Below, piece after piece: positions 14,185-51,809 of a stretch of DNA of 51,809 bases. Where the stretch lies: NCBI GenBank assembly GCA_044892505.1, contig CM097882.1, positions 202,442,192 to 202,494,000 of the forward strand. Reading direction: 5' to 3'. The number at the start of each line of letters is the position of its first letter. Position 1 is the stretch's first letter. Under the pieces are notes generated by a model that was given only the letters and a program-made list of their open reading frames with translations, did no database searches and was not told where the DNA came from. Both the position numbers and the translations under genes were made by a program. The DNA is from Schmidtea nova (lineage: Eukaryota).

Positions 14185-14826
14185 ATGAAGCGAGAACCGA
14201 CCACCAAATCCATATTGAAATAAACATCCACTAGCGATAAAAATCGGAATACGCTAAGAAAGAACCAGGAGAGAACCACGCGGAGATCGCGAGCTAGTGC
14301 CTCGAGGATAAGGCTCCAAGGAATCGCAGATGTCCCCACGTCAATTATTCAACAGGCGCGTAGACACCTTCGTCTATGGATCCGACGATACATCAACGTC
14401 GCCGCCAAGGTGCCATCCGGTTCCTTTCCAATACAACTCCGGTGGGAAGGAGAGTCGAAGTGGCCAATAGCCGCGAATCGATCGCACAAGACGTCCCCAA
14501 ATTGGTTCCTCCAGATGACCAACGATGCGGGTCAACCCCGATGGATTTTATGTGATGCCACGATAACAGGTCCAGAATTCTTCAAGCTTGGTTACCTACT
14601 CATGGATAGGCCTCGGTGTAGCGACACTGGAGAAATCCAACCCTACCGACATGCACCCGGAAGTATGACATCGGAACAGAACCCGAAACCGGACGAGCTC
14701 AGGCTATGGGAGGTATTCACCTACCAGGACAAACTCGTTTGGGATCCATGCCCTGAACTCTATTTACCAGGTGGCAGAAGGCGAGCGGATCGACGTCTCG
14801 ACCAAGAGATTCGACCCTTCTTCTGA
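14185..14826 (+). pseudogene. LTR-encoded ORF L1, solo-LTR copy (one in-frame TAA at 14221)
   Basis: ATG 14185 is in frame with the tracked ORF 14410-14826. Homologous to 26727-27362 (ARRHLR.W, LQLRWEG, LGYLL.DRPRC, ELRLWEVF.Y.DKL.W). Acceptor TTATTCAG 4 nt upstream. Confidence 0.8.
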
Positions 14827-15052
14827 GAAGGAGTGATTGTAACTACGATCCGATGTAGATGAAATTAACAATAAAATTATTCATTGGTTCTTCTTGTTAT
14901 GACTTGACTGTATGTGAATGACTGAGTATGAAGGAATGATGTGAGAAAGTTCAGGATGGGTAGTGTGTAGTAATCTAAATTTCCGAAGGGTGAAGGGAAG
15001 TACGAATTCATAGTCGAATCATAATTCGAATTACTAATATAATTTATTAGAA

Positions 15053-15613
15053 ATGAGCCTCAATAATATTCACAACTACGAAAAGGAAGCCAAGGAGCAT
15101 AGATCGCGGATTAAAGTATTAGAAAGCCGGCTGCATCAGTTAAACGATGAGTACCAGTGGGTAAAAACGACCTGGTTTAACCCGGAGCGGGTAAAGTCCA
15201 TCTTACAAGCCCGATATAGAGCAGAAAGAATCGCCAAGGAACAGACGAGAGAAGGGGCAGCAGTAAAAATAGAGTTGCACAACTACCTGAAAGACTCCAC
15301 TCAGGAGTTTATCACCCAACAATTGCGCCCACTGATCCGGGATAGCACATTCAACCGATGGGTGGATACGGTTGCTACGACGACAAGTACCCAGACGGAA
15401 ATTGAATCCGGTACTACGACAACCACTCCAGAGATCGTATCGCCACCAGAAGGTTCAAAGAGGACCAAGCGCCGAAATCGCCTCGGGGCGAAAAGACGTC
15501 GCGAGCGTAGGGCTTACGCGGAAAGAATTGGTATTCAGGTAGATTTGCTGAGTGGTTTAACGAAAAGGCAACTGTTGGAGGTGATGAATCCCTCAGTGTT
15601 GTTAAATGAATAA
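15053..15613 (+). CDS. LTR-encoded ORF L2, solo-LTR copy (coiled coil, TQT motif, Arg-rich motif)
   Basis: Intact 186-aa homolog of 25972-26535; branch-like TACTAAT and acceptor TTTATTAG 2 nt before ATG; AATAAA at the stop (15612-15617). Confidence 0.8.
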   Translation: MSLNNIHNYEKEAKEHRSRIKVLESRLHQLNDEYQWVKTTWFNPERVKSILQARYRAERIAKEQTREGAAVKIELHNYLKDSTQEFITQQLRPLIRDSTFNRWVDTVATTTSTQTEIESGTTTTTPEIVSPPEGSKRTKRRNRLGAKRRRERRAYAERIGIQVDLLSGLTKRQLLEVMNPSVLLNE

Positions 15614-15785
15614 TAAATGTTTATTAGTCAGCTGAATTGATTTGATTGTCTGTGGAATGATTGTGCAAACAACGGAAAAATAAATCAAACCGATTCATTT
15701 TATACTACAGGTACCCCGAAATTGAGTTTACCCTAGAATAAATAAGGGAGCGCACGAAAGAGGGACCGAAAGAAATCCACATAAA

Positions 15786-15959
15786 CCTTCTATCGGTAGT
15801 GGTGGACCCGTGAATAAACAAGGGAATAGTACCCGCAAGGTTGCTCACCTGCCTTGTCATTTCACAACGTTGACACAGTACCAACATGATGATTAGTTAT
15901 GGATACATCATGGGTGTCAGCGGGGAGATGTTTTTTATGTTGGCGAGATCACCCTAACG
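15786..15959 (+). ncRNA. Putative structured U5 cis-element (GNRA-capped hairpin plus long hairpin), solo-LTR copy
   Basis: 174 nt with only about 7-8 differences from the reverse complement of 25636-25809, while neighbouring ORFs differ at about half of the silent sites checked. Confidence 0.55.
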
Positions 15960-15998
15960 AATAAAGTCCAAAATAATCTCAGTTGAATAACCAACCAG

Positions 15999-16285
15999 AC
16001 AAATCGGAAATGACTAACTCTAAAAATCTACAAATCAATACATTGGATCACAATCAATCTCGATTAATGGATTATTTGTCAGCACCGGAAATCAATCAAT
16101 ACGGACTGTCATGGAGCCTTCTCATTTCAACTCTTGATATCATTGATCAAGATCTCCGTTTGCGAAAAACCGGCTTATCAATTAGCGATCAATTTCTATT
16201 AATAAAATCTAATTGGTTTTTAGTATTCCTACATATCATTTTATATTTATGGCTTCTGTTCAGGAATTCAGCTAAAAATGATTAA
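15999..16285 (+). pseudogene. Nuclear receptor pseudogene, 3' part (hinge and start of LBD-like region)
   Basis: GLSISDQFLLIKSNWFLVFL matches the LBD signature F..L...DQ..LL...W; rejoining 12918 to 16003 at the shared ACAA restores the frame (...ILIYKSEMTNS...). Confidence 0.65.
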
Positions 16286-19468: not shown

Positions 19469-19973
19469 TTCGGCATCTGGCCATTTGGCATCTGGCCATT
19501 CGGCATCTGGCCATTCGGCATCTGGCCATTCGGCATCTGGCCATTTGGCATCTGGCCATTCGGCATCTTGCCATTTGGCATCTGGCCATTCGGCATCTGG
19601 CCATTCGGCATCTGGCCATTCGGCATCTGACCATTCGGCATCTGGCCATTCGGCATCTGGCCATTCGGCATCTGGCCATTCGGCATCTGGCCATTCGGCA
19701 TCTGGCCATTCGGCATCTGGCCATTCGGCATCTGGCCATTCGGCATCTGGCCATTCGGCATCTGGCCATTCGGCATCTGGCCATTCGGCATCTGGCCATT
19801 CGGCATCTGGCCATTCGGCATCTGGCCATTCGGCATCTGGCCATTCGGCATCTGGCCATTCGGCATCTGGCCATTCGGCATCTGGCCATTCGGCATCTGG
19901 CCATTCGGCATCTGGCCATTCGGCATCTGACTATTTGTCATCTGGCCATTCTATATCTGGCCATTTGGCATCT
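19469..19973. repeat. 15-bp minisatellite (CGGCATCTGGCCATT)n, ~33-34 copies
   Basis: Directly visible tandem array with few variants (TTGG, CTGA, CTTG). Confidence 0.95.
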
Positions 19974-21403
19974 TAACTTATGCTCGTTTATATTCTTCGA
20001 TTTCTTTAACTATCATTTTCATTGTTGATATATCTTTACAGCTTCTTGGCTGCCGTGCCATATTATTTTGTTGGGCTATCCCGGAAAAGGCTAAACGAAG
20101 GAATGACCCTGGTATTTGCAAATGCTGCTTGATATTCTTCAAGTATCTCGATGACTAATTCCCTGGGAACGGTCTTAAGTGACATAGTCACAATTAAGTG
20201 ATTGTTATAAATCTTAGGGTGCGTGGCGTTCTGGGTTGATGGGGCGGACTCTCCTTTCACTCCCTGGAACCGGAAAGATTGATCGTTCATGATATAATCT
20301 AGGTTAACAAATAATGATATACATATACATGAATATTTGTTGTTGCTTTTTAATTTTTATTTATGTTATACTTGTTAATTTAATTTTGAGTGAATTTTCT
20401 GAACATTTAAGCTAACAATTACAATAATTTGCATTAACCATCATCGGGAGAAACATATAAACAAATTAAAATTGTATTTAATAATGGAAATTAGTATTGT
20501 TATTATCATACATGCAGTAGATTTTCCCCATTGTCATTTCCCACGCTAAAACAAAATTTGTTTAATGGATTGCTCCTGGTCTCCCTAATTATGGAAGCTG
20601 CTCGCTCTACCTGTCATCCCATAATTTCATCTCTCCGCTTAGTGATAACTACATTTACTCAACACAAGGGAATTCTTTTCGAGACGGTTCTTTAACAATT
20701 AATTGCTGTAATTTAATCTATCAAAACTTAGGAATCTTTTATGGTTAGCCACGGATCTATAAACGCAGTTTATAATTTTTCCAGTTATAAACTGATTACG
20801 TCACTACACAGGAATGGGTAAATTTATATGACTGAAAATTTCCCTGACTATCGGGATTAGTGTTGATATCTCGGACTGATTCACAGACGAAAACTGCTGA
20901 TATCGTTCATTATTTCTACTAGTTTTAAAAAAATATCGTCACTATTATTTTATGATAGGATTACAGACGATAATGAATTGCTCAAATCATTAAATGGAAC
21001 TGCCGACTCTAAGATTATCACTTGGATATTATTGGTATTAAATTTTTATACTATCACCCTCTATCATCAATTGTCATTTAAAGGGGAACTACTGACGTTG
21101 GTAATTACGTGGGTCACTTGTACTAGTAACCGAATTCAGATGTATTTTTATAACCGATCACGAGATAGAAGAACCCCTGACACCGCAGTATTCTAACATT
21201 CGCTGCACAATCGTGTTATTATTTTACTATATTGTCCTTAAGTAGTTCCCCCATCTCTCCCGCGCTTGCGGCGCGAAATTGAGGGCTGAACTCCAGGCCG
21301 TCCTGACTCTCAAGGCAACGTTCCTAAGCATAAGTTAAAACCAAACAAAAACAAAATCTAAACCATATTATAAGCATAAATATTTATTGACAAAACTAAA
21401 ATT

Positions 21404-23870: not shown

Positions 23871-25635
23871 TCTAAAACGACTGAATTACTTTACAATGAA
23901 TGGATTATAAATCAGAATAAATTAAATAAATCAATTAATTTAATGGATACCAATTTGACTATTTTATTTTAGAGATCCGTAAATCAATAGTCAGCATAAT
24001 AGTCAGTAAGAATTATCAGCTTTTTACTCACAAAAAGTCTAAAATAACATTTACTAATTTAGATGACAGTAGACTTCGGATAGGTAACAATGAGAACCTG
24101 GCTAATGTCAATTATAGCGTTATTGATATGATTATAAAGGTGCGTGATAATGCTGTTGATGAAGCTGAAGAAGATGTTAACGAAAATGCCGAATATTTTA
24201 GTTATATTAAAATTTATTTTAAAATTTTGTGTTACTTCGAAGATTTTTTTGTTTTTGTCGGAGAAGAGCAGTTTTTGATATAATTTGTTTTTTAGGTGTT
24301 TCTTTTGGTAATTCGATTGTTAACTTTTAACTTTGGGATTATTTTTACATTTTACATCTTTTCTGTACTCGAGTTTTAGAGCATTTTCAAAGTATGTGGC
24401 ATTTCACCCATGACTTTTGAAAAATTAAACGAGTATAGAACACAAATCAAAAGAAGAAAAATAATAATCCGTCAGTTCTTCCGGTATTCTTTGAAAGTTT
24501 GTCTAGGAAAAAGTTTGTATTTAATTTTTATAATTCTAAATGTATAGAGTTTTATATTGTCAAATTAGTATTTCGATTTAATGATGAGGTTTACACTCGT
24601 GCTGATTCCTTTTCTTATTCTATTGTTTATGAATTAATTGATGTGATTGATGGCGATTCTAAGTATTCTGTATTGTTCTTTGCTCTGTTCTCGTTTATAT
24701 TTTCAAACGTCATGGGTAAAGACTGCCTGTCTTCTATCTATTCGAGTTTCAGAACGGAGTCAATTAATGGGATTTAGCGTTGTTTTCAGTCATATCGATG
24801 TTTGTGAATATGTGAGTGTGAGAGTTTTGAGCCCGTGTGTTTGCCTCATTTTTTGCGGTTTAAGTAAATTAACTGATGTGGTTGTTGATGATGTTTATTT
24901 TCTTCTTTTAATTTGTGTTCTATACTCGTTTAATTTTTCAAATGTCATGGGCGTAATGCCACATACTTTGGACAAGACTGACCGTCTTTTCTGTACTCGA
25001 GTTTTAGAACATTTTCAATTGGGGATTATGGATTTCGTTTTCAATCATTCTGTTGTTTATAAATATGGAAATATTTATAATATATTCTTAAAAAATATAT
25101 TTTTTTGTATAAAAATAAAATAATATTATATTTTTAAGATTAATTTATTTAAATTAAAAAATTTTAATCGATTAAAATTTTTTGAATAATATAGAATTTA
25201 AAATTTATATTTTATTTTAAAAATTAATACTAATACGTTTGAATAATCGATTTATATTTGAATGTAAGATTGGGTAGCACCTGATGAAGAGAATTAAGTT
25301 CCCAAAATATATTGTGCAAAATATATATTTGGATTGGCGTTTGTTTTTAATTATTTTAGTGCCATGCTAGTTGTGTTACGTATTAAATATTTTATAGTTA
25401 GAATAAAAAAATAATAATAAAAGAAATTCATTTTGAATAAATATGTCAAAATATAAAGCTAGCGACCAATATTGTAAACAAGTTTAAAACAGTCAGAAAT
25501 ACAATATCATTTTCAAATGCGAATTTAACATTTTAATAAGATTAGGAAATTCGACGAAATTCTAAGAATTAAGAGTTACATTATCTGTGCTGGTGTGTTG
25601 GTTAGATTGACAACTGAGATCCTTATGATTTTATA

Positions 25636-25809
25636 CGTTAGGGTGATCTCGCCAACATAAAAACATTTTCCCCGCTGACACCCATGATGTATCCCTAACT
25701 ACTCATCATGTTGGTGCTGTGTCAACGTTGTGAAATGACAAGGCAGGTGAGCAACCTTTCGGCTACTATTCCCTTGTTTATTCACGGGTCCACCACTACC
25801 GATAGAAGG
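25636..25809 (-). ncRNA. Putative structured U5 cis-element
   Basis: Sense RNA folds by eye into GUGAA/UUCAC - ACAAGG/CCUUGU - GUAGCC-GAAA-GGUUGC and CGUUGACAC/GUGUCAGCG - CAUGAUG/CAUCAUG. Confidence 0.55.
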
Positions 25810-25971
25810 TGTCTGTGGCTTTCTTTCGGTCCCACTTATGCTCTTTACTTTGCTCTAGGGTAATTTACTTTTTTGGATATCTGCAGCTTTAAATGAACCA
25901 GGTTTTCATTACTTTTAATTCTCATACATACTTCAAACAAACAAGACAAATCAAATCATTCATTTATACAT

Positions 25972-26535
25972 TTATTTGTAGTTCAACAATACAGAGGGTC
26001 GGATTACATTTAGTAGTTCTTGCTCAGATAGACCACTGAGCAAGTCTACCTCTATTCCGAGACGATCTGCATATGCGCGTCTTTCCCTGCGCTTTTTCGC
26101 TCCTAAGCGATTCCTCCTCTTTGTGCGTTGTGAGCCTGCGGGAATTGTATTTGTCACTGTAGTAGCCGTGGCTATGGTCGATGCATTCTCTGTTTGGGTG
26201 CTCGTAGTCACCGCTATCGTATCTATCCATCGATTAAAGGGGCTCGCTCTGATCACGGGGCGTAGTTGTTCGGTGATGAAGTCGCGGGTCGATACCTTCA
26301 AATAATTCGCCAACTCCAATTTCAGGGCTGCAATCTCTCTGGCATGTTCCTCAGCTACTCGTTCTGCCCTGTACCTAGCCTGCAGGATGGACTTAACCCG
26401 CTCTGGATTAAACCATGTCGTTTTAACCCGCTGATGCTCCTCATTCAGCTGCCTTAATCGATTCTCCAGCACCCGTGCGCGCGCCTTGTGTTCTCGCGCC
26501 TCTTGCTTGAAGTCTCTGCCCTTGGGTTCCGTCAT
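25972..26535 (-). CDS. LTR-encoded ORF L2, 187 aa: coiled coil, TSTQTE (LC8-type motif), Arg-rich motif, Leu-rich C-terminus
   Basis: Intact; 23-aa block VKTTWFNPERVKSILQARYRAER is identical to the solo copy with 12 synonymous codon differences; AATAAA overlaps the stop (25971-25976). Confidence 0.85.
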   Translation of the reverse strand: MTEPKGRDFKQEAREHKARARVLENRLRQLNEEHQRVKTTWFNPERVKSILQARYRAERVAEEHAREIAALKLELANYLKVSTRDFITEQLRPVIRASPFNRWIDTIAVTTSTQTENASTIATATTVTNTIPAGSQRTKRRNRLGAKKRRERRAYADRLGIEVDLLSGLSEQELLNVIRPSVLLNYK

Positions 26536-26726
26536 GTCTGTAAATATATCATTAATGTTGGTATATGTTATGTGTCTGATTTTTCGGTCATCTTATCGTC
26601 GTTAAACAACTCCGTTCTATCATCATATTATTTCCATGCGCTCGAAAGAAAAACAAAACAAGACCGTTTTCACACAAATACATATATTTTGTAACTACGA
26701 CAATCATTCTCTCTCGGCTGCGACAA

Positions 26727-27362
26727 TCAACTGAAGGCCCTCAAGTCCTGATCGGCAGGATGCTCGTCGCGACGAATTCCATTCTCCTCATACATTTCTG
26801 GGGCTGGGGTCCAACTCAGCTTATCTTTGTAGATAAACACCTCCCAGAGGCGAAGCTCCTTGGGCTCGGGGTGTTGTTCCACGGAAACACTTCCTGGTGC
26901 ATTGGAATAAGTGAAGACTTCCTCAGTGTAGCGACACCGAGGCCTGTCTAGCAGCAGGTATCCTAATTGGAAAAGAGCCCTTCCGGTCATCATTCCATTG
27001 CTCAATACCCAGCGGGGTCGTCTCTGCTCGTCGAGAAATTGGAAGAACCATCTAGCGGTCCTTGGTTCGGCAGGGTCCATGGTGGACATCCAATCGGGGT
27101 CTCCTTCCCATCGTAATTGTAACGTGAAGGCGCAAGCCGGAACATCTGCGGCTGCACTCATATGGTGTCTTGTCCACCGCCGTAGGTGGCGACGCGCAGT
27201 TTCGCTAATTCTGCGTGGGGCTTCCATTTCTCCCTCGATGGTGGGGATCCTCCTTGGCCGGACGACGGGACGGATGCGTCGGGGTTTCCGGACGACATAA
27301 TCTTCCATTTTCATCTGTCGATAGGTGCTCGGACTTCTTTGATATTCTTCGGTCTTTATCAT
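26727..27362 (-). CDS. LTR-encoded ORF L1, 211 aa, basic N-terminus plus unknown globular domain
   Basis: Intact; homolog in the solo LTR; strong acceptor CCTAAC...TCTTCTTGTCTTCAG 4 nt before ATG. Confidence 0.85.
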   Translation of the reverse strand: MIKTEEYQRSPSTYRQMKMEDYVVRKPRRIRPVVRPRRIPTIEGEMEAPRRISETARRHLRRWTRHHMSAAADVPACAFTLQLRWEGDPDWMSTMDPAEPRTARWFFQFLDEQRRPRWVLSNGMMTGRALFQLGYLLLDRPRCRYTEEVFTYSNAPGSVSVEQHPEPKELRLWEVFIYKDKLSWTPAPEMYEENGIRRDEHPADQDLRAFS

Positions 27363-28323
27363 TTTTCTGAAGACAAGAAGATGTGATTGTGATGAATTTG
27401 TTAGGTGCGTGCAATTATTTATAATCGGCGACCTACTCGACTCAAGAGTAAAACTCTGTAGGTTGCCGTTGGTGTTTCAGTGTTAGATCGGTTCGATGTT
27501 CAAGATAGTAGGTAGGTTGTATGTTATCGTCATGTGGTTGAGTGTATTCACTATGTCAAGTTGCTTAACTGATTTGGCCACGCAAAAATTCAGTGCAGTT
27601 TATGACAATCTTTATTCATTTATGATGATCACTTGATCATTTATTATGTTAGAATATCATCATTTCATAGACCATTTGGGTTTATATCTACAGCAATCAT
27701 ACTCACTCGCATCTCAGGTGTTATCTCCATACCTCAGGTTCAACTATCAAGAATCACATCATCCGGGGAACATGATCGACCCCTTATTCAGGTTAATTGG
27801 GTACAGATTGTACTTGCATTACATTTCGTGGGTCTATCCTTCGTACCCTTCGAGAGGTGTACATATATGTTGGGATATCCTGTGGATTCATGGTTTACCT
27901 CTGACCCTAGCCCTGTCGGTCTCTGACTCACCTGACTCATGTAGTGTATATCTCCATACTAACCCTTTGCACAAAACCGTCGTTACTCTACTCGACTTCA
28001 CGACGCTGGACACTCCTGGTCTATTAACAAGCCTTTTATGTATACTGATTTACTCGGTGTCGTCGTGACAGATGATACGTCCTTCAATTGCTTTCACCCA
28101 TACCGATGTTGCGATGGCATGAGATATCCGATGTGCCCTTCCCCCTTCCGCTTGTTAAATATTTAGAACACCTATGGTCCCGCCGCATCAGCACCTCACA
28201 ACCGAAAGATTGTGTTGCGCTGAGAGGCCCCAAGAATCCGTCAGGCTGTTAGGCCTCCGGAAAACCTTATGGATTTTAACATATTTATATAATTATGAGG
28301 GTTTAAAAGACTAATACAACGTG

Positions 28324-28463
28324 AATTACCTTTTATTTCTTTCCAAATTGGTTTCACAATGTTCTCAGTAGTCACAAACAATTCACACTTGGTAAAGATA
28401 ACATTGTCAAATACTGATTTGACTTCAGTATTTATACTCCACCGGTGTTGTTGGTTAGCCAAT
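28324..28463 (-). promoter_or_regulatory. LTR promoter and leader-exon splice donor
   Basis: ATTGG 28459-28463, TATAAATA 28429-28436, TCAGT 28413-28417, donor AAG|GTAATT at 28330/28329; same layout as the solo LTR. Confidence 0.65.
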
Positions 28464-28838
28464 CAGCATCGAGTATGTGTGTATGTTTGCTTCATTATTT
28501 TGTGTTGTCGGCTTTTTGCTGCCTAACTTAACTTGCCGATTTGTTTGGTTAATCATGCGGTAAGTTTTTCTTAGTCATCAATTTATTTTATTTTATTTTT
28601 GTTTATAGGTCTTTGGTGACATCCGCCCACGCGCTGTCATATTCAGATTTTATCTGCTTCGCATGAGTAAGTTTTGAAGATTTTTGTTGTTTTGATTAAT
28701 ATTTTATTTCTTTTAGATGTTGCCGCCTATTTTGTTACGCTTTGGTGTTGGTAATTTATTTTGTTGTTATTCTGTTGTAAATTTATTTTATTGATTGTAT
28801 ATTATTTTCAGATGCTGCTCGATTTGGCTGGCCCAACA

Positions 28839-30889: not shown

Positions 30890-32302
30890 CTACTCCAACC
30901 ATCCTTTCGTTGACTTCGTGTTCATCACTGTTGTACTTGCTTTCTTTTCGATTTCCAATTCTACGTATAGGTTGTCGTCGTACAACATTTCCCACATTGT
31001 TTGGTGTGGTATGAATTTTGGTTCTCCAGTCGCTAATGAACATTCTGTGGTTGGTCTTTTGTAAGCTTCGTGCTTACCATCAATTTTGAATACTCTCGCT
31101 ATTGTTTCTTTCGAGTTTTTCACTCTCATTATAGCCTTTGTTTCTAGTGGCCATTCCAATATGTCGTCGTAACCACCTTTACACAACGCAAAGAATAATG
31201 ACACATGCGTTTCCTTTCCTGATCCATCTCCATTTGGATAAATTCTCATCCGGACTTTGTATTCATTTTTCCACAGATAGAATGGTGGACTTGTTACCGA
31301 CACTTGACTTCCTGTTTTTGCTGCTGTGAATTTGTCATTGAAGTTCTTGATTTTCCATACATATGGTGCAACAGGTAAACTCTCGATATCCTCTGCATCT
31401 CGCACCCATATTTGATGTCGCACGTTTACTTCTTTTACTAGCGTCTCTATGACTTTGATTTTCTCCATCATTTTCTCTCTGGTGAGCTCGAATTGCTCTC
31501 TCGTTTCCAGTAATAACTCTGTCATGATCCTCTGAGATTCAATTTCTTTTCCTAGTTTCTGTATGGTTTGTTCCATTCCGTTCAAATTTTCTGTTAACAT
31601 CTCTGCGTGTTGTACCGTCTCGGTTTCCAAATGTTCTTTCATTTCTTTGCTCGTTTTCTTTACTACACATCCTTGTTTGCTCCATACGCACTTTCTTGGC
31701 CTTGCTTCACATCGTTCCCAATGTTCTTTCAACATCACCTCTTCTCTGGCTCCACAATTACTTGGACACATTCCTCTGAATTTTCCGCACACTTTCTCTT
31801 CTGCTACATTGAGATGTTCTGTTTCAATTATCTCTCTTGTCTCCCTTTGTTCACAGTATTGACATTCTATTATTTCTGCTTTGCACTCGTTCTTGTGACT
31901 TTTCAACTGCTTGATGGTTATCGTCTGTTGACACTTTTCACATGTTGCTTTCTTGTTTTCGCATTTCTCCAGATGTTGTCTGAGTTCGATTATTTGACCT
32001 TTCCACTCACATGGTTGGTTTATACATTCTGTTTTTATCTTCCAGATCTCCTTTTGGATTGCTTTGTCTGGTTTCGTCTCGTTGATTAGTAGTTTATCGT
32101 CACACTCTGGACACTTTCTTGTCTCACTTTCACTGATTATTTGCAATATACACTTGGTGCACATCCTGCATCCACATTCCGTTTGCCTCGGTTTTAACAG
32201 TAGATTTTTACACTTTACACACGTCACATTTACTCCCCATTGTCGATTTTCTCTTCTTAGCATCTCGATCGTTTGGTAATCTGCTTCACTTTCTGCTCTC
32301 AT
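30890..32302 (-). CDS. TRAF-family protein, 470 aa (RING, TRAF zinc fingers, coiled coil, MATH)
   Basis: RING CVKC...CGCRMCTKC...CPEC; zinc fingers CINQPCEW...HLEKC; MATH VWKIKNF...SPPFY...RIYPNGDGSGKETHVSLFFALCKGGYDDILEWP...PKFI; intronless. Confidence 0.95.
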   Translation of the reverse strand: MRAESEADYQTIEMLRRENRQWGVNVTCVKCKNLLLKPRQTECGCRMCTKCILQIISESETRKCPECDDKLLINETKPDKAIQKEIWKIKTECINQPCEWKGQIIELRQHLEKCENKKATCEKCQQTITIKQLKSHKNECKAEIIECQYCEQRETREIIETEHLNVAEEKVCGKFRGMCPSNCGAREEVMLKEHWERCEARPRKCVWSKQGCVVKKTSKEMKEHLETETVQHAEMLTENLNGMEQTIQKLGKEIESQRIMTELLLETREQFELTREKMMEKIKVIETLVKEVNVRHQIWVRDAEDIESLPVAPYVWKIKNFNDKFTAAKTGSQVSVTSPPFYLWKNEYKVRMRIYPNGDGSGKETHVSLFFALCKGGYDDILEWPLETKAIMRVKNSKETIARVFKIDGKHEAYKRPTTECSLATGEPKFIPHQTMWEMLYDDNLYVELEIEKKASTTVMNTKSTKGWLE

Positions 32303-35524: not shown

Positions 35525-36790
35525 CTACTGTATTGCGATATCTATGATGGAATTATTCTTTCCATTTTTCCCTTCGATTTTTGCTCCTGCTTCGTATAAT
35601 TCGCTTAGCACTTTAAAGTTCGTCTTCTTTCTTGCTGCGATTATCATGATTGTATCTCCGTTATCATCAACCGTATTCATGTCCGCTTCGCATTTGACCA
35701 TTGCTTTCGTTATTTCTAGCACTTCGTTTTCTTTCTTTCGACGTAATGCCCAGTGTATCGGCAATCTCCCATCCTTTGATAATAGGAATGCCACTGGCAT
35801 TTGATTCTTGATTGTGTCCATATCACTCTCGTTATAATCTCCTTGTGCGTATCTGTGCACTTTCTCTGTAATCGCTCCTAGTATCTCTAGCGAGTTTTTA
35901 TTCTCTTTGAATTCCGATAATTTTTCCTGCGCTTTTACTACGATTGCGTCTAATCTCTCTTGATATTCCGCTTTTGCATTGAACAACACTGCTTTGTTTC
36001 TTATTCGCGTTTGCATCTGTTTCATTCGTTGGTCTTGATATACTGCTTGTCTGAAGAATTGTCCATACTTCAATGCTTCCATCAGCTCTTTATATCGCTT
36101 GCTTATTTCTTTGTGCTGCTTTTGGATGTCATAGAAATGTTCGAAGCTCATATCCGGATTCCATTGCTTATCACACCATTTCTTGATTAATCCGAATAAT
36201 TCTTTCTTTCTGTCTTCCAGCTTGTATTCTCTTGGGTTCTCACTAACCCGTAGCGTATCTCTCGCTATCAACACTGCAAGTGTTTTTGGATCGTATGTTA
36301 CTTCTAATAGATGTTTCAGTAACGCATTTTCTCCCCTTATGAACACTTCATTACAATCTATGACCCACGAATCTCCTTCTGGTCGTTTCCACTTTAGCAA
36401 TATTCTCCAGGTTTTACTATTTCTTACTCCGATTGCTTGTTTCATGATCGATCCTCTAGTTAGTTCATCGATTTCCCACGTGGCATTTTCCGTGATATAC
36501 TTCAGTATTCGGTGATTCGCTCTATCAATTGCATGATTCAAGAATGTTCGTCCCTCTTTATCTTTTGTCAACCAATTCGATCTGGTGTTTCCGAATAGCT
36601 TGATTATTTCATCTTTTCTTCCATGAATCGTCATCATCATAAGTGGAGTAATTCCTTCCCAATTCACTTTGTCAATTTCTCCTCCACCTTCGAGTATCAT
36701 CCCTACAATTTCCTTCACTTTTTCGTTTCCACTGTGCTTGATTGCATTGTGCAACGCGGTATTACCGTCTTTGTCTTGTAGATTCAATGT
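35450..36790 (-). CDS. Ankyrin-repeat region fused downstream of integrase
   Basis: QDKDGNTALHNA, NWEGITPLMM, KDKEGRTFLNHA, KDGRLPIHWA, DDNGDTIMIIAA, GKNNSIIDIA. Domain edges approximate. Confidence 0.9.
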
Positions 36791-37149
36791 CTGAGGGATC
36801 TCCTCTAGCAGCGTCCTTGTTATTGGATGTGCTGTTCTGTCTTTTGCATACTCCATTACATTCTTTCGAACTTCTGACAGTATATTGAAATCGTGCCACC
36901 ACCTCCATTCCGGTATAATTTCTCTGGTTTTCCTTGCCAGTTCTTTGATGTCTATTATCTCCCTTCGGTTGTCCTCTAGACTTGTTTGCGGCTTTTGTTG
37001 TACTCGCAACATACTGATTCTCGCCGTCTGTGATCTTGTCATTACCCGTTTCTCTGGTGATAGAGTTGCTGTCTTTGGTATTTTCCTGCATCGACATGCA
37101 TTCACGTATATTGGTCTTACCAATGGATTGTTCACCAATCGTACTCGCA

Positions 37150-40100
37150 CATTATTTTCGTTTACTGTTGTGATTTCATATGGCCCTTTGCCTGGTCGTT
37201 GGAGTTTTTTGACCGTACCGGGTATTATCTCTGGTGTTTCGATTATCACCCAATCTCCAACTTTTAAATCATGTGCTTTCACATTCTTTTTCTGATCATG
37301 CAGATCCTTGTAACTCTCTTGATAGAACTTGATGTTCAGTTCCGCCGTTTTCCAGATTTCTTGCATTCTTTCTTTGAACTTTGTAACGTAATCGTCAACC
37401 TCCATGTACTGTGATAATGGTGGTTGGTATTCTAAATCGATCGGTAAGTTGCAATCTCTTCCGTACATCAGTTGGAATGGACTTAGCTTTGTTGCCGCAT
37501 GTATTGACATTCTGTATGCCATTAAACACAAGTTTATATACTCGTCCCAGTCAGTCTGGTGTTTGCTGACGTAATTCGACAACATGCGTATTAATGTTCC
37601 ATTGAATCTTTCTGTTTGACCGTTCGTTTGTGGATGGTATGGGGATGTTCGTAATTTCGCAATTCGGAAGTAATTCGTAACTTCGTCTAATATTTCACTC
37701 ATGAAATTTGTTCCTTGATCCGTTAGGATTTTCTTTGGTGTTCCGTATCTGCAGCATATCTCTTCCACCAATATTCTCGCGACTGTTTTTGCCTTTTGAT
37801 CCGGTATTGCGTATGCTTCTGGGAACTTTGTTAGATAGTCCGTGACTACTAATATATACTGATTCCCCTTTAAACTTTCCGGCAATGGTCCAACTACATC
37901 CATTGCTATCGTCGCCATAGGTTCTGCAGGTATTGGCATTGGTTTTAGTGGTGTTTTCCACTTCGTTCCGACGTTCTTTCTTGTCGCACAGGTTAAGCAG
38001 TTCTTTATCCATTCTTTCACATCATCTTCCATGGTTGGCCAAAAATACTTTTGTCTCAATCTCCCGATTGTCTTTTTTGCTGACATATGTCCGCCTAATT
38101 TTCCGTCATGATATTGAGTCATGATTTCCTTTCGTCTGTTCGCAGGTAAGCACATTAATCTCCGTTCTCCATCTTGTATCAATAACCATCCTTTCTCCAC
38201 CACATATCTATGTTGATATTTCTGCATATGTTCGCGCAACGTTTGGTTCTTGCCGAATATTTCCATTTCCCTTTCTTTCAGATACTTGCTGATCATTCCC
38301 AACTCCTCATCTTCGAGTTGATCTTTCCTTAGTTCGCTGAAATCCAAATCTTCCGCTATTAATGCACATATTTTTAGAGCATTCAGGTTCACCAATTCTG
38401 GAAATGTAAACCTTGACATGCAATCCGCATTTGCATTTGCTTTTCCTGCTTTAAACTTTATGAATGGCGAGTATTCCTGCAACTGCATCGCCCAACGCAT
38501 CAATCTACTTGATGATTCTTTATGTTGACCTAACCATACCAATGGTTGATGATCCGTCGTGATATATATTTCATGACCCCACAATAAGTACTTGAAATGC
38601 TTGATTGCCAATATTATCGCATAGGCTTCTCTTTCCGTGACTGAGTAATTCTTTTCGTGCTTCCTGAACGTTCGACTGTAATATCCAATTACTCTTTCCT
38701 TGCCTTCTTCGTCAAATTGGCCTAGTACTGCTCCTGCTGCATATCCACTTGCGTCTGTTGCCAACAGAAATGGCTTCTTAAAGTCTGGATGGACCAATAT
38801 TGGTGCTGTAATCAGCTTATCTCGTAATGTTTCAAATGCTGCTTGCTGTTCTGGTCCCCATACAAACGACACGTCTTGTCTTACTAATTCTTGCATTGGC
38901 TTTGATATTCCGGCATAGTCCTTGATAAACTTTCGATAATATCCACACAATCCCAAAAATTCTTGTATTTGAGTCACTGTCTTTGGTGGTGGACATTCTT
39001 TAACTTTCTCGATATTCCTTGGATCTGGTTCTTTTCCTTTTGCCGATACAATGTGACCTAAGAATGTCACTTTTTCTTTTGCCCAATCGCACTTTGACGG
39101 CTTTAATTTCAGTTTCCATTGCCTTAATTTCACGAACACATTTCTGATGTCTTGCAAGTGATCCTCGAATGTTGCAGAGTAGATCAATAGATCGTCGATG
39201 TACACCATGCATTGTTTTATGCCATGTGTTACGAAATTCATGCATCTCTGGCATGATGCTGGCGCGTTTGTTAACCCAAACGGCATTTTCTTGAATTGGT
39301 ACAGATCTCGTCCGATTGTAAATGCTGTCTTCTCTTTATCCTCGTCTTTCATTTTGATCTGCCAATATCCACTTTTTAAATCCAGTGACGTGAAATAAGC
39401 TGCTCCTTGTAACGTCAATAACATTTCGTTTATGTCTGGCAGTGGGTACGTATCTCTTTTCGTAACTGCGTTCAATCGTCTGTAATCGATACAGAATCTC
39501 TGAGTTCCATCCTTCTTTTTCACCATCACCACTGGGAATTGCCAGGGTGAGCAACTAGGTTCGATGACCTCTGCATCTAACATCTTTTGTACCTCTTCTT
39601 CTGCCACTGCTTTTTGCGCTTCTGCCAATTTATATGGTCGTAATGCGATTGGCGTTTCGTCCGTCAACGGTATCGTATGTAATGTTACATCGCATGTTCC
39701 TAAATCCAGATCCGATGCTGCGAATATATCTTTATACTCCATCAACAGTTTCTGTAGCCGTTCTTTTTGTCGTTCGTCTAACAACACACTGTCGATTTTC
39801 CATGGTAATTCGCCTTTGCCTTTCTCATTCTTGTCTGGTATCTCGATTTCGGACATGGGTGTTAATTTACCCAAATTCTCATTCTCGTATATTATCTTGT
39901 CCTCTTCGTCGAAGTTTACCAGATTAATCGGTATTTCTCCTTCTTGGTTTATCGTGACCAATTCTCTTGCCATTGGTAATTCTTTCTTTGCTTCGAACTT
40001 CTTACTGGGTTCGAATATCATATCTCCTTTTATTGTCGAATCGATCTTTACATAACACATCATTTCATGTCTCGCTGGCACTACTATTTGTTCCGCACTT

Positions 40101-40480
40101 GCCACTTTAACTTTCATCCTGCAGATTTTTCCTGTCCTATCTTTTAACTTCATTGCTCCTAGATCAATTATGATTTCCTTGAACAGGTCTGGCATCAGGT
40201 CAGTTCCAATAATACATGGTACACTCAGCGATGGTATTACAGCGATGTACGTGTTGATCTCTGCACCTCGATGCTTAATTTTTACAAACCATCTTCCGGC
40301 TACTTCTACTGTCTCTTGACTGCACGCGATTACATGTACGTTCGTCTTCTCGATTTCTCCTTGATTTTTCTCTGGTATATAGTTGATGTCGATTGCCGAA
40401 ATATTCGCGCCTGTATCGATCATTGCTTCAATTTCTCTGCCATTTATTTCTACGGTTGTTGTTAAGATCGGTCCCATATT
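37150..40480 (-). CDS. pol: Pol domains: aspartyl protease, RT, RNase H, integrase (within ORF 35525-43984)
   Basis: PR AMIDTGAN (~40415); RT RFCIDYRRLN, LDLKSGYWQ, MPFGLTNAP, VYIDD (39191-39205); RH ATDASG...TDHQPL; IN HHCC finger, MDVVGP / TDQGTNF / NGQTERFN, GPY motif. Domain edges approximate. Confidence 0.97.
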
Positions 40481-40699
40481 TGTGGACATAACCGCTATCG
40501 TGTGCGTGTCTTCTAACGAGTTTACACTTCCACCTCGTTTTACTTTGCATCCTTCGGGAATTATCGGGTATATACTTGTCATCGGCATCATCTGCATCAT
40601 ATTCGGCTTCGCTTTGTATATTGGTTCGTTATACATTGACTGAGGTGGAGCGCTGTATCTCCAATTCTCAACTGCACTCTTTTCGTTATACTGTGGAAT

Positions 40700-42850
40700 C
40701 TGGTTTATATTCGCTTGTCCTCCTCGATCGTCATCGTCATCGTCGTCGTTGCTTGAATCATCTTGTGTTCGATATCCCTTCACTCTTTCCCATAATCCTT
40801 TCCTTTCTTTCTTGAGTTGTCGCCTTGCTTGTTCGTCTTGCATTATCTTTTTGAATTTTCTTCCGACATCTTCATTTGTTCCTTTCATTTTTGCAAGTAT
40901 TTTCAACAATCTCTTTATTCGATGAATGTCTTTTGAGTGTCCGTGTAACACCATCGTTTTCGCAAGGAATGGTAAAAACCCTACTACCATCTTCCAATTC
41001 ACTTTCTTTTCTCTTTTGTAGATATCGAAACACGCTAACATTTGCGTTATTATCACTCTGACGATTTGTATTATCAATATAACACCCAGTATTCCAGCCA
41101 TCATTTGTCCAAATATCAGGAATCTTCCCCACATTGCCTTCATCATATTTTCTGTGGCTTTCTTGAAATGTGCCGGTGACAACAACAGTTCGTAATTCGG
41201 TCCTTCTCGATAATTCGTTCCTCCCGTTATTGTTACGATATTTGACAGTAATGCTTCTCTTCTTGCCGGAAATAGTATATTCTGTCTTGCTGCTTCCAGA
41301 TCTTTTGGACTATAGATTCCGTTGTTTGAGACATCTACGTCACTGAACTGTCTATCCTTCGATAACTGCATTAGCTCAAATTCTCTTGGTGCTAATACTT
41401 CTGTTCTTCCTGGGAACATAACCCATTTGCCATCTGGCTTCTGATAAAGCGGTCCGTACGCGTTACTACAGTTGAATGGATTTGGTTCAAACCCTGGTGG
41501 ATTGATGATTCTCGTCACCGGTTGAACGTATCGTACTTTTCCTTTGTAATCGATTTCTAGTTCGTTTGTACATTGTCCAGGTTTCAACTGCGTTGTTGCT
41601 GCTAGCGATGCATGTGTCTTTTCGCAAATGTATACGTACATTGCCTCTCCAACCACTCTTCCGAAATGTCCTTCTCTCAGTGGTAATAACGGCATCGCGC
41701 TATCTGGATTCGTAATCGCTACGGCCAACTTTGTCTTCAATATTTCCCGATTCAGTATACAATCGTTGTTTATCAGATCATAGTACACTTTTTGCAATGA
41801 GGCTTGTCCTCTATGGAATAAGAAATCCATTTTATTATTCACATACAAGTGTAGCTTGATATCCATGGTGTCGATCTTGGGTTTCGCATTCGGCACTTCT
41901 TGCTTTGACACGTATATTCCTGGATAGTTCGTTTCGTATACTGTTGTACTGCACTTAAGGGTTGCTTTCCCTTTTATGAATCTCATGCCCACATCCTGAT
42001 TTGTGGTTATCAACACTGTTGGTGTGGTTCTCATTTCTATCCGTTTCTCTCTATGATCCGGTTTCAATTGTCTTTTATTCTCTAAAGCCTCTTTGAGATG
42101 TTTTGCTCTAGCTTTGTCATCATCATCTTCTTCTTGGAATGTTTTCCCTTGAATTTCGTCAAACTTTGCTCCTTGTAGCAGTTGTAATTGACATTCGTTC
42201 ACTTTTGGTTTGTATACCAATGTTGACATTCCCGTTTGACACATGCTTCTGTCAATTTTACACATGGATAACGTTTTCATTTCTCCTGTTGTTGGTTCGA
42301 AGAATGCTTCGTAACTTTTCAGTTCAACTATGTACGTATCCATTACTACTAAGTTGGTTGCGGGTACTCCGAATATTGGGTAGGTTTCTCCTTGACAATA
42401 CCCTTCTCCTCCCGTAATCCGTCCTGCTACATAATACGTCTGCTGTAACATCATTCCTGGCTTTCCTTTTATCTTGATTTTATCTCTCGTTGTTACTTCT
42501 CCATGTTTGAACAATGCTTCGCAGTCTTCTCCTTGCAACACAATTGGTTCTCTTTCGGTTCCTGGCATGACAATTGCTGAATAATGTCCTCTACCGCAAT
42601 AGAATGCGAATCTCGTCTTTTGCACTTTGCATTCATTCACCATTGTCTTTATTAGTTCTGCCTCTTGATACACGTGATACCATTGTTCCTTTTTGATCTC
42701 TTTCAATTTTACTGGAGTTGCATCTTTGCACTGCTCCGTACCTCTCAATGAGTACTTTTCTCCTAACTTCATTTGATCACAGTCAAATACTTCAAATGTT
42801 GTTACACCCTCTGTGCTTAACAACCATACTATCATCATCATGATTATCGA
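40700..42850 (-). CDS. env: Envelope glycoprotein, chuvirus (Jingchuvirales)-like class III fusion type, between Gag and Pol
   Basis: Signal-like NSIIMMMIVWLLS then FEVFDC...YSLRGTEQC; CKVQKTRFAFYCGRGHYS; YVNNKMDFL...VYYDLINNDCILNREIL...GEAMYVYIC; TM FLIFGQMMAGILGVILIIQIVRVII. Family assignment comes from my recollection of the motif pattern, not from a search. Confidence 0.8.
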
Positions 42851-42964
42851 GTTCAAATTCAACGTCGATCTTCCGTTTCCTTGCATCGTTTGTCTATTCT
42901 CCATTTCTCTCAATACTCCTTCAAGTTTCTTTCTCATCACGTTTGACCCTTCTTTTGTCTGGTT

Positions 42965-43360
42965 CTCTTTTATGAACTTTTCCCATCCTCCTTTTCTGAG
43001 GATATACGGTTCAATTTCTTTCTCGATAATCATCGCCGTATTTTTAATATGTCTTCCCATCGGGCTTGACTTCGGACTTTCTCGGCTTAGCGTTAACAAA
43101 TTGTATATCGTATACGAGATTGCTACTAGATATTTGCTGTCCGTTTCTGCTCCGTTTAGTAGCCTTTTTACCAACGTCGTGGTTCCTTGCCAATCTAGAT
43201 GATTCGATTTTGTTTTCGCCTTGATCAGTTCTGGCATAATCGGTGCTATCGCGTTGTGTAGCATCCTTGCCTTCGTACCGGGTTCGTTTATCCGCCACAG
43301 ATTCTTTAATTCTGGGTCAATTATCGCTAACACATCCATTATCGTTTTGGTGAGCCATTC
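42965..43360 (-). CDS. Divergent Bcl-2-like domain (within polyprotein)
   Basis: BH2-like IEPYILRKGGWEKFIKE (compare Bcl-xL LEPWIQENGGWDTFVE); BH1-position helix LVKRLLNGAETDSKYLVAISY lacks NWGR. Confidence 0.6.
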
Positions 43361-43987
43361 CTCTCCTTGGCAGACTTGATTCTCCTCTTTTCCTCTGATT
43401 TCTGCGATTTTGTCTAATTTCTTCAAGCAAATCTCCCATTGCTCTTGTCTCCTTTCTTCCCTTGTCTTTGGGATTGCTGTTGCTGGATCTATCTTTGGTC
43501 TTCCTCTTGGTCGTTTTTCCATTCCAGTTCCGGTTTCTACAAATCTCGTTACTCTTCCCGTTTCTTCCGTAACATCTCTTCCTTCGTTTGCTCGTTGTTC
43601 TAACCATCTTTCCATTTCTTGAGTAAACTGTGGTTGTTCTTGCTCGTCTTCTGAATCGTTTACCATTTCTATGACTACCTCCTGTTCCACTCCTTGATCG
43701 TCGATTTCTGCTGGTGACGTTATTGGCATCTCTATTATTCTGTCAAAAATATTCGCCGTTGGTTTTTGAGTCAACTTTGTTAATTCTTCTATCGCCTCAT
43801 CACTGTCTGTTAGTATCTCATCGACGTCATACGCTTCTGGCGGTGTTCTCTCTCTCGTTTTTATTGGTGTTGTCCTTGCTTGTCCTGAACTTGTTCCTGG
43901 GGTCATTGTTGACTTCATCGGACTTGGTGTACTCATGCTTCCTTTCGCTTTCTTTTCCTCTTTAAACTTCAGTGGTTGACCCACTAT

Positions 43988-46576: not shown

Positions 46577-48262
46577 TTATTCTTCTTCTCGTCGTACTCT
46601 AGCCCATTCTTGATTATGTTTCTGTTGACTCTCTCTGTTTTCTCTTTCGGCCTCAGCTTCTATTAACTGGATCATGTTTATCTTTGGTTGAGCAGCTTGC
46701 TGGCTTCCCTTTGCCATGCTTTCGATTATCTCGTGTAATCTGGATACCTCCTGTCTCAACTTAGCTTCTTTCATACTAGCTTCGTTTGCACTGCTGTTTG
46801 GGTTGTTCCGTTGTTGACCTTGATTCCCATAGCTTGGTCGATTCCCGTAATTCGGTCTATTTCCACTGTTTGACCAACTTCTCTGTTGATTACAGTCTCT
46901 TGACATGTGTCCGGTTTTCCCACATGTGTAACACGTTTTCCCATAACATCGATTTTCTGAGTGACCCTTTTGTCCACACAGTTTACAGGCTACATTCTGA
47001 AAACACTCTTGTTGCCAATGTCCGTTTTTCCCACACGTCTGACATTGCCTATTCTGCCTGTCATTGTAACTATTTCCTCCATTCGGGTTCACCGTGATAT
47101 ATCCGTTATTTTTCCTCGCTGGCGGTTCTTTGAACAATCTCTGCGAATGGGGAATACTTTGATTCATGTTTCTTTTTCCTTGTTCTTCATCTTCTGTCGT
47201 TTTTCCCATTACCGCCGTAATTCTCATGTCATTCATTGCCATATGCAATTCGAATAGGTTGGCTGCTTCCAACGCTTCATCTACTGTTTTACATCCTTTG
47301 CATCCCACTTGTGCTCTGATGTCAGGTCTCCTGAGACCTCGTACGAATAACGCTGTCATCAATTCTTCGTCTACTGGGCTTCCTCTATTGAATGCCAGTT
47401 TCGCCAACTTTCTTAATTCACTTGCGTACACTGCATTTGACTCGTTTCTCCTCTGTTTTCTTGCTGAGAACTCATCGAACGCTTCGTTCAACACTTTATT
47501 TATCCCAAACGTCTGTTGGAAGAACTCCTTGATTGCTTCCCACGTTCTGGGTGGATTACTTCCCGATCTCTTCTCAATATACAGATCCAATGCGCTATCT
47601 TTCAAGTATAGCGGGATTCGATTCGCTAACGTTTCTGCACTCCATCCGCATATATCCACGAATATGCCAAATTCCTTTAGAAACGTATCCAATCTACTGG
47701 CGTCTCCATTGAATGGTTCGCCCTTGAATTTTTCTCTTAGATCCTCTCTGTGATCACTCATCCCGATTCCACTATCTTGGAATACTGTACTAGTTTTCTT
47801 TACTTCTAGTTCACCACTTGTTTCTGAATTCGACTCTTCTTCTTCACCACTCTCTGTTTCGTTATCTCTTGATTCGCTTCTTGTTCTGTTTTCCCTGACT
47901 AGTTCACTGTCTATCGTCTCTACTTCGTTTTGTACTTCTAGATCTTCTGGGGTTTCTTCTTGGTTCTCTTTGTTACTCGAATTATCGCGGATCTCTACTT
48001 GTTTGTTCTTTTGTTGCTTAGGCTTGTTACCTGTTCTTGTCCTTTTTGCTGCTTTTCTTTCTGCTTCCGTTAAGATTGGTATTATACCTGATCTTGTTTC
48101 TCGTCCCTCAATTTTGTCTATTCCTCAACTGCTTATATTCTCAACCGATTTTCTACTTCGCTTTTGCTTTGCTTCTTCTTTGATTTGTTTCCTTTGATTG
48201 CTCTGACTGCTAGATTGCCTTGAATTGCTTGATTGATTTGTTTCCTTAAAACAAATAATCAC
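46577..48262 (-). CDS. gag: Gag (Ty3-type capsid plus three CCHC knuckles) with an in-frame acidic/basic N-terminal extension
   Basis: PFNGDASRLDTFL...PLYLKDSALDLY capsid; CQTCGKNGHWQQEC, CKLCGQKGHSENRC, CYTCGKTGHMSRDC; frame stays open upstream of ATG 47761 to 48262 apart from TGA at 48125-48127. Confidence 0.9.
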
Positions 48263-48634
48263 TTACACGATACGTCCCCGTTATCGTGTTTCTCGTCCCT
48301 CTCACGGGTGTAGTCATAATTCATGAAGATCCCCATTTTTCCCATTTCCCTTGATTTTACGTCTATTTAAATTATCTATGCAGTCGCATCAATTATCTAT
48401 TCTTTATCAAATACACCAATTACTTTTCCCCAGTTTCCCAATTACTTTGTCGCTCAGCGCTCTTATTATCCCCTTTACTTTTCTCAGGCTTCTCTGGCTC
48501 TGAGTTCTAATTTCCCCTTATCTGTTGACTACTCTGTTTCTCGACTACTCACTTTATCTCTTATTCACACTACGTTTACTACTTCATTTCAATTCTCATC
48601 TCTACTCACCTTTAATTCAGCTGACCTCTCTCGT

Positions 48635-51168: not shown

Positions 51169-51701
51169 CCCCTGAATGAATTACCGTTAATTTCTGTCGA
51201 TCTTTATTTATTATTTATTATTTCTATTCTATGGTAGCCCTACTGTTCGCTTTCTGTTGTTCTGTTTTGCGTCGTTACTTGCGTATCCCCCCGTGTTCTT
51301 GAATGTCGCCCCGACATGATCATTGCTAGTTGCTCACACTCATACCATTTTCATGCACGCTTTTCAGCATACTTTTACCTCACGTCATGCATACTTTTCA
51401 TCACTTTTCGTACTGTTATTCCACATATTATTCCTCATACTTCATTCATCCCCATACTTACATTCCATTATCATTCATACTTTCATTCTCATGCATACTT
51501 TCATCACGTTCATCAATCTCATTATTTTACACTCATACTTTTATTTATTATTTTTCAACCCGATTCATTCTTGCTTCAGGACCCTCAAACCCTCTATTAT
51601 TTACTTTACTTTTCCTCGCTAAATTCAATTCCATCCCGGTTCAGGCGCTCTAACACTGTCCGCAGATATCGAATTCAATTTTTCCCACAAAGATCGATTT
51701 A

Positions 51702-51719
51702 ATCCCGGCTGAGCCCCCA
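51702..51719 (-). promoter_or_regulatory. Primer binding site, tRNA-Pro
   Basis: TGGGGGCTCAGCCGGGAT, 6 nt inside the 5' LTR edge; 16/18 identical to the MLV tRNA-Pro PBS TGGGGGCTCGTCCGGGAT. Confidence 0.9.
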
Positions 51720-51725: not shown

Positions 51726-51809
51726 TGCTGGTGTGTTGGTTAGATTGACAACTGAGATCCTTATGATTTTATACGTTAGGGTGATCTCGCCAACATAAAA
51801 ACATTTTCC
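51726..51809 (-). repeat. 3' end (U5) of the 5' LTR, truncated by the window
   Basis: 84/84 identical to 25588-25671. Confidence 0.95.

Follow-up and report, generated by a model that had tools for sequence, protein, structure and literature searches.

Can the long terminal repeat (LTR) of a retrotransposon carry protein-coding genes of its own? LTRs count as non-coding, and a solo LTR as a promoter that has no genes. The question is raised by a stretch of 51,809 nucleotides from the planarian Schmidtea nova (NCBI GenBank assembly GCA_044892505.1, contig CM097882.1, positions 202,442,192 to 202,494,000 of the forward strand; hereafter the window), which holds on its minus strand most of a Burro-like giant Ty3/gypsy retrotransposon. 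Two open reading frames (ORFs), L1 and L2, lie in the 3' LTR of this element. From the analyses below we surmise, with a probability of about 0.68, that L1 and L2 are accessory genes inside the LTR, selected in the replicating lineage of the element and likely expressed by splicing from the LTR's own promoter.

Selection on L1 and L2

An earlier note on the window had placed a promoter, a splice donor, L1, L2 and an AATAAA with GT-rich DNA behind it inside the 3.25-kb LTR, and all of these were found within 25588-28838 (window coordinates, collected in Table 1). Its report of a 23-codon block in L2 with 12 synonymous and no non-synonymous differences from the diverged solo LTR of the window was confirmed at 26427-26359, where 12 codons differ at 14 nt. 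Over the whole of L2 the same two LTRs gave proportions of synonymous (pS) and non-synonymous (pN) differences of 0.90 and 0.22, and over the L1 core of 0.70 and 0.34.

A search of the genome with the L1 protein returned 3,103 candidates, of which 150 were scored; these are 65-100% identical and mostly have open frames. The 105 insertions analysed comprise 15 retrieved via the window L2, 60 chosen from the 150 to cover the identity range and 30 retrieved with the solo's L2, the last forming an older set. With broken copies excluded and the pairs being non-independent, the median dN/dS (non-synonymous to synonymous rate) between copies was 0.21-0.37 across divergence bins for L1 (4,186 pairs, 92 copies) and 0.08-0.16 for L2 (3,081 pairs, 79 copies), which upholds the proposal that two selected genes lie inside the LTR. 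We read L1 and L2 as two protein-coding genes under purifying selection in the replicating lineage of the element. That the ORFs are products of chance or of RNA-level conservation and are untranslated is extremely improbable: they have no homologue in the databases searched, as such ORFs would, but synonymous sites are near saturation with the amino acids kept, the frames are open in most of the best 150 L1 hits, and the gap fraction within both ORFs is 0.00-0.01 in the aligned LTRs.

Changes after insertion and the fate of solo LTRs

Differences between both LTRs of one element represent changes that arose after its insertion. Across 32 LTR pairs these were 47.5 non-synonymous (N) and 12.5 synonymous (S) changes, in line with a neutral N share of 0.76 (48/60 N, p=0.55), and the pairs also show three stops and two one-base indels since insertion. 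The post-insertion ratio was 2.2 for L1 alone, from small counts, while the ratio of 0.57 for L2 alone (14 N, 8 S) leans the other way, with too few changes to call. Purifying selection between lineages combined with neutral change after insertion suggests that the genes are of use to the replicating element; copies that have landed appear to drift and decay neutrally, which tempers any claim of host use.

Classed by their LTR ends, 62 loci gave 33 solo LTRs, 11 5' LTRs, 13 3' LTRs and 5 with incomplete ends; a 4-bp duplication borders 33/33 of the copies without internal flanks that had both ends located, which are thus true solo LTRs. The proposal that a solo LTR is a self-contained cassette holds insofar as all 33 retain the cassette, with both ORFs open in 23/33, a sample biased toward open L1 since the solos were chosen among the best L1 hits. 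It fails for the window's own solo LTR, which repeats the layout at 12920-~15997 as the earlier note had stated, but has an L1 stop at codon 13 and a degraded 3' end and target-site duplication. In the older set L1 was open in 18/30 and L2 in 17/30 copies, which overcounts intact frames, because openness was scored within the aligned part and the window's broken solo passes. Private changes gave a pN/pS of 0.52-0.56 in 31 solos and of 0.50-0.56 in 24 paired LTRs, so that solos show no extra constraint, and the solos carry 5 private stops.

The solo LTRs might instead be maintained as host-useful or restriction-factor genes, a domestication that we consider very unlikely. Hundreds of candidate copies, the number of verified solos with both frames open and the private ratio of the solos would agree with it, but paired LTRs give the same ratio though their post-insertion changes are neutral, and the private stops, the many closed frames of the older set and the drawing of solos from L1 hits that favour open frames all speak against it. 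The constraint after insertion that a domesticated solo-LTR gene should display was not found, the pairs being tested directly and the solos via private changes only. The claim that every solo LTR can keep expressing the genes is thus weakened by neutral change after insertion, by solos no more constrained than paired LTRs and by the broken L1 in the window; solo LTRs retain the cassette physically but read as passive, decaying copies.

The window solo LTR interrupts what is apparently a host nuclear-receptor coding exon (12722-12919 and 15998-16282); a zf-C4 domain (E 5e-12) stops just ahead of it, and the open frame resumes past it. Elsewhere, LTRs of the family have inserted into other LTRs of the family (L143 and L221, in L221 within the predicted first exon), and two solo LTRs (L130 and L141) have internal deletions that take out L2 wholly or partly.

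Diversity in the cassette also far exceeds that of the internal DNA flanking it (5-6%): in the comparison of L112-L189 against window 29288-25588, it was 26-36% in the spacer and the L1 N-terminus versus 4.6% on the polypurine-tract side and 6% in the leader, and the L1 and L2 identities are uncoupled between copies. Such diversity may point to an arms race or to specificity types.

Predicted promoter, splice and poly(A) signals

In the aligned LTRs the 960-nt spacer before L1 is 63-72% identical past its first 200 nt, and the signals are nonetheless conserved; TATA box, initiator, donor, acceptors and poly(A) signals are kept across LTRs with just 35-50% L1 identity. The TCAGT at 28413-28417 is presumably an initiator motif. 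The hexamer overlapping the predicted donor reads AATAAA in 65/72 and AATACA in 7/72 copies; the script behind this count preferred donors with an AAT motif, but the alignments agree with it. The 6 copies without a G at donor position -1 have a G at +5. A YAG stands 0-9 nt ahead of the ATG in 89/105 copies of L1 and 98/103 of L2, against a background of 2,496 out of 10,138 ATGs (25%) at the same loci. Three downstream internal accessory ORFs likewise have an AG right ahead of their ATG.

We propose that the TATA box and initiator drive transcripts whose short non-coding first exon is spliced to the acceptor before each start codon, and that the L1 and L2 mRNAs each end at their own poly(A) signal. 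Between acceptor and ATG lie 0-9 nt, a distance that does not keep to one reading frame, which is what a non-coding first exon would predict. The third acceptor past L2 may let other mRNAs splice over both genes. Genomic RNA would initiate at the same start site and escape splicing. In the 5' LTR it would have to read through as many as four poly(A) signals, probably with help from U1 bound to the donor overlapped by the first AATAAA; the earlier note had foreseen that full-length RNA must bypass a poly(A) site there, and this is supported.

Directly behind the donor, the predicted stem-loop at 28266-28176 (z -3.66) has two-sided changes in 7/29 pairs among 35 sequences, a covariation that exceeds all 500 shuffles and all slid controls, with few independent events; it has no Rfam match. 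The stem may mark unspliced RNA for packaging, and we propose this as the reason why no intron-less LTR was found: gapped motif searches for spliced DNA copies joining exon 1 to L2, to L1 or to the third acceptor gave 0 matches each, with exact patterns that make for a weak search. Contigs of four sequencing runs of unspecified type cover the spacer too and contain no joint at the predicted splice sites, which is evidence neither way. The 17-nt LTR motif complementary to the leader was equalled in length in 1/60 shuffles and is present in 19/20 other elements; covariation between the two sites was looked for and none found, and the motif may serve in long-range RNA pairing or as a protein-binding DNA site.

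Several observations weigh against the proposed scheme of expression. The TATA-to-initiator spacing is ~21 nt, shorter than the usual spacing of roughly 30 nt, and donor positions +4 to +6 vary among copies, so that the motif may do no more than mark a poly(A) site. The foamy virus donor precedes its poly(A) signal (PMC3694450); in the window element the hexamer comes first, immediately 5' of the donor. In that virus a U1-bound donor controls polyadenylation, both signals being present in both LTRs and read differently via U1 and RNA structure, and the window element likewise has its predicted major donor and a poly(A) signal inside the LTR and needs suppression of the 5' poly(A) site; the R of foamy virus is 193 nt and non-coding, however, whereas further poly(A) signals and genes follow here (PMC3694450).

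Alternatively, a long transcript could be cut at each poly(A) site and its downstream genes capped by spliced-leader (SL) trans-splicing of the host rather than by cis-splicing from the LTR donor. Such an operon-like arrangement is improbable in our view, even though a layout of poly(A) signal, ~90-150 nt, acceptor and ATG repeats in the LTR and the 3' accessory ORFs, and flatworms use SL trans-splicing and operons with ~100-bp spacing (PMC8629364, on a different flatworm): a GTA donor is kept in 90/91 copies, with +5 G in the copies that lack the -1 G, and the first gap of ~960 nt is long for an operon.

Layout of U3, R and U5

If the start site of the L1 and L2 mRNAs also makes the genomic RNA, both genes lie downstream of the genomic start, in R or U5, a placement in which we have good confidence. 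One such layout, an R of ~2.4-2.7 kb that is coding, stands somewhat short of an even chance. The value of ~2.4 kb in the earlier note could not be established, as the AATAAA at the donor and that in the hairpin at 25782-25777, both of which it had missed, allow other layouts. The conserved AATAAA overlapping the donor makes possible an R of ~100 nt that ends behind it, with both genes in a 2.7-kb U5, which we put forward tentatively. Both of these layouts share the initiator start, and the minus-strand strong-stop DNA would accordingly be ~2.8 kb, irrespective of the poly(A) site at which the genome ends. The conserved AATAAA in the hairpin at 25782-25777 makes possible a third layout, rather unlikely to us, in which R is short and near the 3' end and the genes lie in U3.

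Genes in U3 have precedent: sag of mouse mammary tumour virus (MMTV) is located there, and nef and the foamy accessory genes overlap U3. On this account genomic RNA would start just upstream of the 3' block and end behind the hairpin AATAAA at 25782, and the upstream TATA and initiator would be a second promoter for L1 and L2 only. The stretch at 25838-25640 is indeed the most conserved part of the LTR (97-99%), with an AATAAA in 54/55 LTRs and a predicted hairpin; linkage falls at ~25990-25840, L1 and L2 follow the promoter segment of U3 more closely than they do the 3' end, and an ORF in the MMTV 3' LTR is established (PMC2191119). But no TATA or TCAGT motif was seen there in the alignments, the motif at 25897-25881 reads as an acceptor, the hairpin has a two-sided change in only 1/65 pairs, and three poly(A) signals of the 3' LTR would remain for the genomic RNA to read through, all of which makes this account of the transcripts unlikely. 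The window element resembles MMTV in that protein-coding sequence within an LTR is duplicated and carried by LTR copies (PMC2191119), and each element does hold two DNA copies of L1 and L2, as had been claimed. It differs in that MMTV has one such gene in a vertebrate retrovirus, whereas the genes here number two, are each served by an acceptor and a poly(A) signal of their own, and sit in a Ty3/gypsy element, downstream of its sole evident TATA and initiator; no sequence relation to sag was found.

Where first-strand transfer is intermolecular, a breakpoint at R is expected (PMC6894440). Window correlations, four-gamete counts and switches in a copying model all indicate recombination throughout the LTR, highest in conserved stretches; linkage of the LTR to the internal flanks is near zero everywhere (24 and 19 elements), and the LTRs read as mosaics throughout. 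Two patterns sit less well with the short R and long U5: correlation of the L1/L2 block is stronger with the promoter part of U3 (rho 0.42-0.55) than with the 3' end (0.01-0.24), and estimates of template switching rise not only near the initiator but also near 26140-25840. As to the position of the ORFs relative to the genomic start, the motifs favour downstream and the linkage patterns point neither way.

The L1 and L2 proteins

Structure prediction, which had been recommended for L1, gave a model with a basic, low-confidence N-terminus and an alpha/beta core (predicted local distance difference test, pLDDT, 67; predicted template modelling score, pTM, 0.65) and no fold match: Foldseek against PDB and viral structures returned 0 matches at E<=0.001, and a wide VIA search 0 at Z>=5, the best being Z 3.4 with a root-mean-square deviation of 4.9 over 81 residues. 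The L2 model (pTM 0.27) has long helices, a Thr-rich linker and a conserved basic helix that breaks past residue 159. No homologue of L1, L2 or the L1 alignment was found in a large protein set covering lengths near the query only, nor of L1 and L2 in Pfam, PHROGs or PDB sequences; viral contigs gave no match to L2 and metagenome contigs none to L1, and the ESM Atlas gave none, its best score of 0.82 being a lead only.

Basic regions of bZIP proteins and arginine-rich regulators of the Rev/Rex type serve as comparisons for L2. It has an RxxNxxxAxxxR-like basic helix followed by a leucine-rich stretch, which we treat as a lead only, and its N-x3-A-x3-R motif, in agreement with the N-x7-R of bZIP, is present in 32/33 copies. 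The reading of L2 as a bZIP protein was not borne out, since Pfam bZIP_1 scored only 14.4 bits against a cut-off of 27.6 (E=0.043; 8/33 members at E<=0.5) and the zipper is not continuous in the model, the predicted helix breaking after the basic region. We would tentatively, and on weak grounds, picture L1 and L2 as small basic proteins that bind nucleic acid and regulate the transcription of their own element or the processing of its RNA, being made early and able to act in trans; the low bZIP score and the structure searches of L1 without a fold match tell against this, and any function is guesswork. An alternative role is antagonism of host silencing, because Burro elements are PIWI targets (PMC8532177).

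The host element and its neighbourhood

Burro, or GYPSM1, elements are giant Ty3/gypsy elements of planarians (PMC6431247). The window element has the domain order protease, reverse transcriptase, RNase H, integrase, paired TG...CA LTRs with a target duplication, and a primer-binding site of 19 nt matching tRNA-Pro(TGG), 6 nt inward of the LTR end; it measures 29.4 kb in total and 22.9 kb internally, against the >20 kb internal and ~30 kb total that define Burro, and the insertion is judged to be very young. It shares with Burro a length of ~30 kb, multi-kb LTRs, a CCHC gag, a mononegavirus-type env in frame before the protease (here PF24664, E 1e-71), ankyrin repeats and a MATH/TRAF ORF (PMC6431247). 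It departs from Burro in that gag, a middle ORF and env-pol are separate in this copy (394, 845 and 2,803 aa) instead of forming one gag-to-pol polyprotein of 4,900-5,100 aa, in that the TRAF ORF lies downstream of pol, and in its two genes within the LTR, the Burro text in PMC6431247 mentioning none; the split over three ORFs is the reason for the name Burro-like. Ogre elements resemble it in very long LTRs (1.9-6.5 kb) and extra ORFs, which are described in the internal region and not in the LTR (PMC6431247).

A 152-aa RING-finger ORF lies in the leader (51168-50710, minus strand), 550 nt past the primer site, with an acceptor-like AG ahead of its ATG and an AATAAA behind its stop, and the long leader ahead of gag contains two tandem-repeat arrays (48600-50030). 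Genes for tRNA-Pro(TGG) form a tandem array with a 308-bp period at one locus (L231, G000:C1:459.61-459.66 Mb), and the pattern was matched 1,106 times genome-wide. Outside the element, the window holds a 15-bp tandem repeat with open frames on both strands (19469-19974) and an inverted repeat pair of 73 bp, 94.5% alike (24388-24460 and 24898-24970), which resembles a small non-autonomous DNA element.

Table 1. Features of the Burro-like element and of the solo LTR, in window coordinates.
Feature	Position	Strand	Description
Old diverged solo LTR	12920..15997	+	Layout as in 3' LTR; 3' end (~15997) and target duplication degraded
L1 homologue of window solo	14185..14826	+	ATG behind acceptor at 14185; in-frame stop at codon 13 (14221-14223)
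L2 homologue of window solo	15053..15613	+	Open, 186 aa
Target-site duplication TCTG, 4 bp	25584..25587	.	Partner copy past window end, at 5' LTR
3' LTR	25588..28838	-	3,251 bp, TG...CA ends; 1/3,251 positions differs from 5' LTR
Near-invariant 3' block	25640..25838	-	97-99% conserved; predicted hairpins, embedded AATAAA at 25782-25777
Third acceptor-like motif TTCAT...YAG	25881..25897	-	Past L2 poly(A) site; 85/93 copies
AATAAA overlapping L2 stop	25971..25976	-	GT-rich DNA downstream
ORF L2	25972..26535	-	187 aa, wholly within 3' LTR; long predicted helices, basic N-x3-A-x3-R motif
23-codon block of L2	26359..26427	-	Versus window solo LTR: 12 codons (14 nt) differ, all synonymous, 0 non-synonymous
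Predicted acceptor AG before L2	26538..26539	-	2 nt ahead of L2 ATG
AATATA after L1	26683..26688	-	AATAAA in many copies; candidate L1 poly(A) signal
ORF L1	26727..27362	-	211 aa, wholly within 3' LTR; basic N-terminus, alpha/beta core
Predicted acceptor AG before L1	27367..27368	-	4 nt ahead of L1 ATG
Conserved RNA stem-loop	28176..28266	-	Directly 3' of donor; predicted packaging or regulatory element
17-nt conserved motif	28291..28307	-	Exact complement of leader 50656-50672; third, direct copy at 49674
Predicted splice donor AAG/GTAAT	28328..28330 (cut between 28330 and 28329)	-	GTA behind hexamer-like motif in 90/91 copies
AATAAA overlapping donor	28332..28337	-	Then T/GT-rich DNA; candidate first poly(A) signal, ~85 nt past initiator
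Initiator-like TCAGT, predicted transcription start	28413..28417	-	AATCAGTA in 54/55 LTRs
TATA box TATAAATA	28429..28436	-	Exact in 52/55 LTRs; also present in divergent subfamily
CCAAT-box-like ATTGG	28459..28463	-	CTGATTGGCT in 54/55 aligned LTRs
TRAF-like accessory ORF	30890..32302	-	RING, zf-TRAF, MATH; acceptor-like AG right before ATG
2,803-aa ORF	35525..43936	-	Mononegavirus-type fusion glycoprotein, protease, reverse transcriptase, RNase H, integrase, ankyrin repeats
gag	46577..47761	-	Retrotrans_gag, CCHC knuckles
Primer-binding site	51701..51719	-	Complementary to host tRNA-Pro(TGG) 3' end
5' LTR inner end	51726..51809	-	Remaining LTR outside window

Significance

Elements of this type are known, and MMTV provides a known case of a gene within an LTR (PMC2191119). 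In the literature we found no description of genes inside Burro LTRs, nor of a Ty3/gypsy LTR that holds two spliced orphan genes, each with a poly(A) signal of its own, although the primary Burro descriptions, supplements and Repbase entries may annotate such genes. In a speculative extension, the LTR might form a self-sufficient regulatory unit of two genes that lies downstream of where the genomic RNA starts. Reverse transcription would then yield a 2.8-kb strong-stop DNA bearing both of these orphan regulators, whose fold may be new; by its choice of acceptor the 5' LTR would toggle between making the early mRNAs of the regulators and making genomic RNA; the cassette would be exchanged, in the form of alleles of deep divergence, among backbones that are nearly identical; and young solos in their hundreds would provide the regulators in trans.

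With two selected genes at either end of the element, a protein family with at least 150 near-full-length L1 copies would go unnoticed in gene annotation and repeat masking. If the start does lie upstream of the genes, the strong-stop DNA and the 5' leader would be several-fold longer than in retroviruses with an R of 193 and 228 nt (PMC3694450), and the element would offer a natural experiment on the limits of first-strand transfer and poly(A) suppression.

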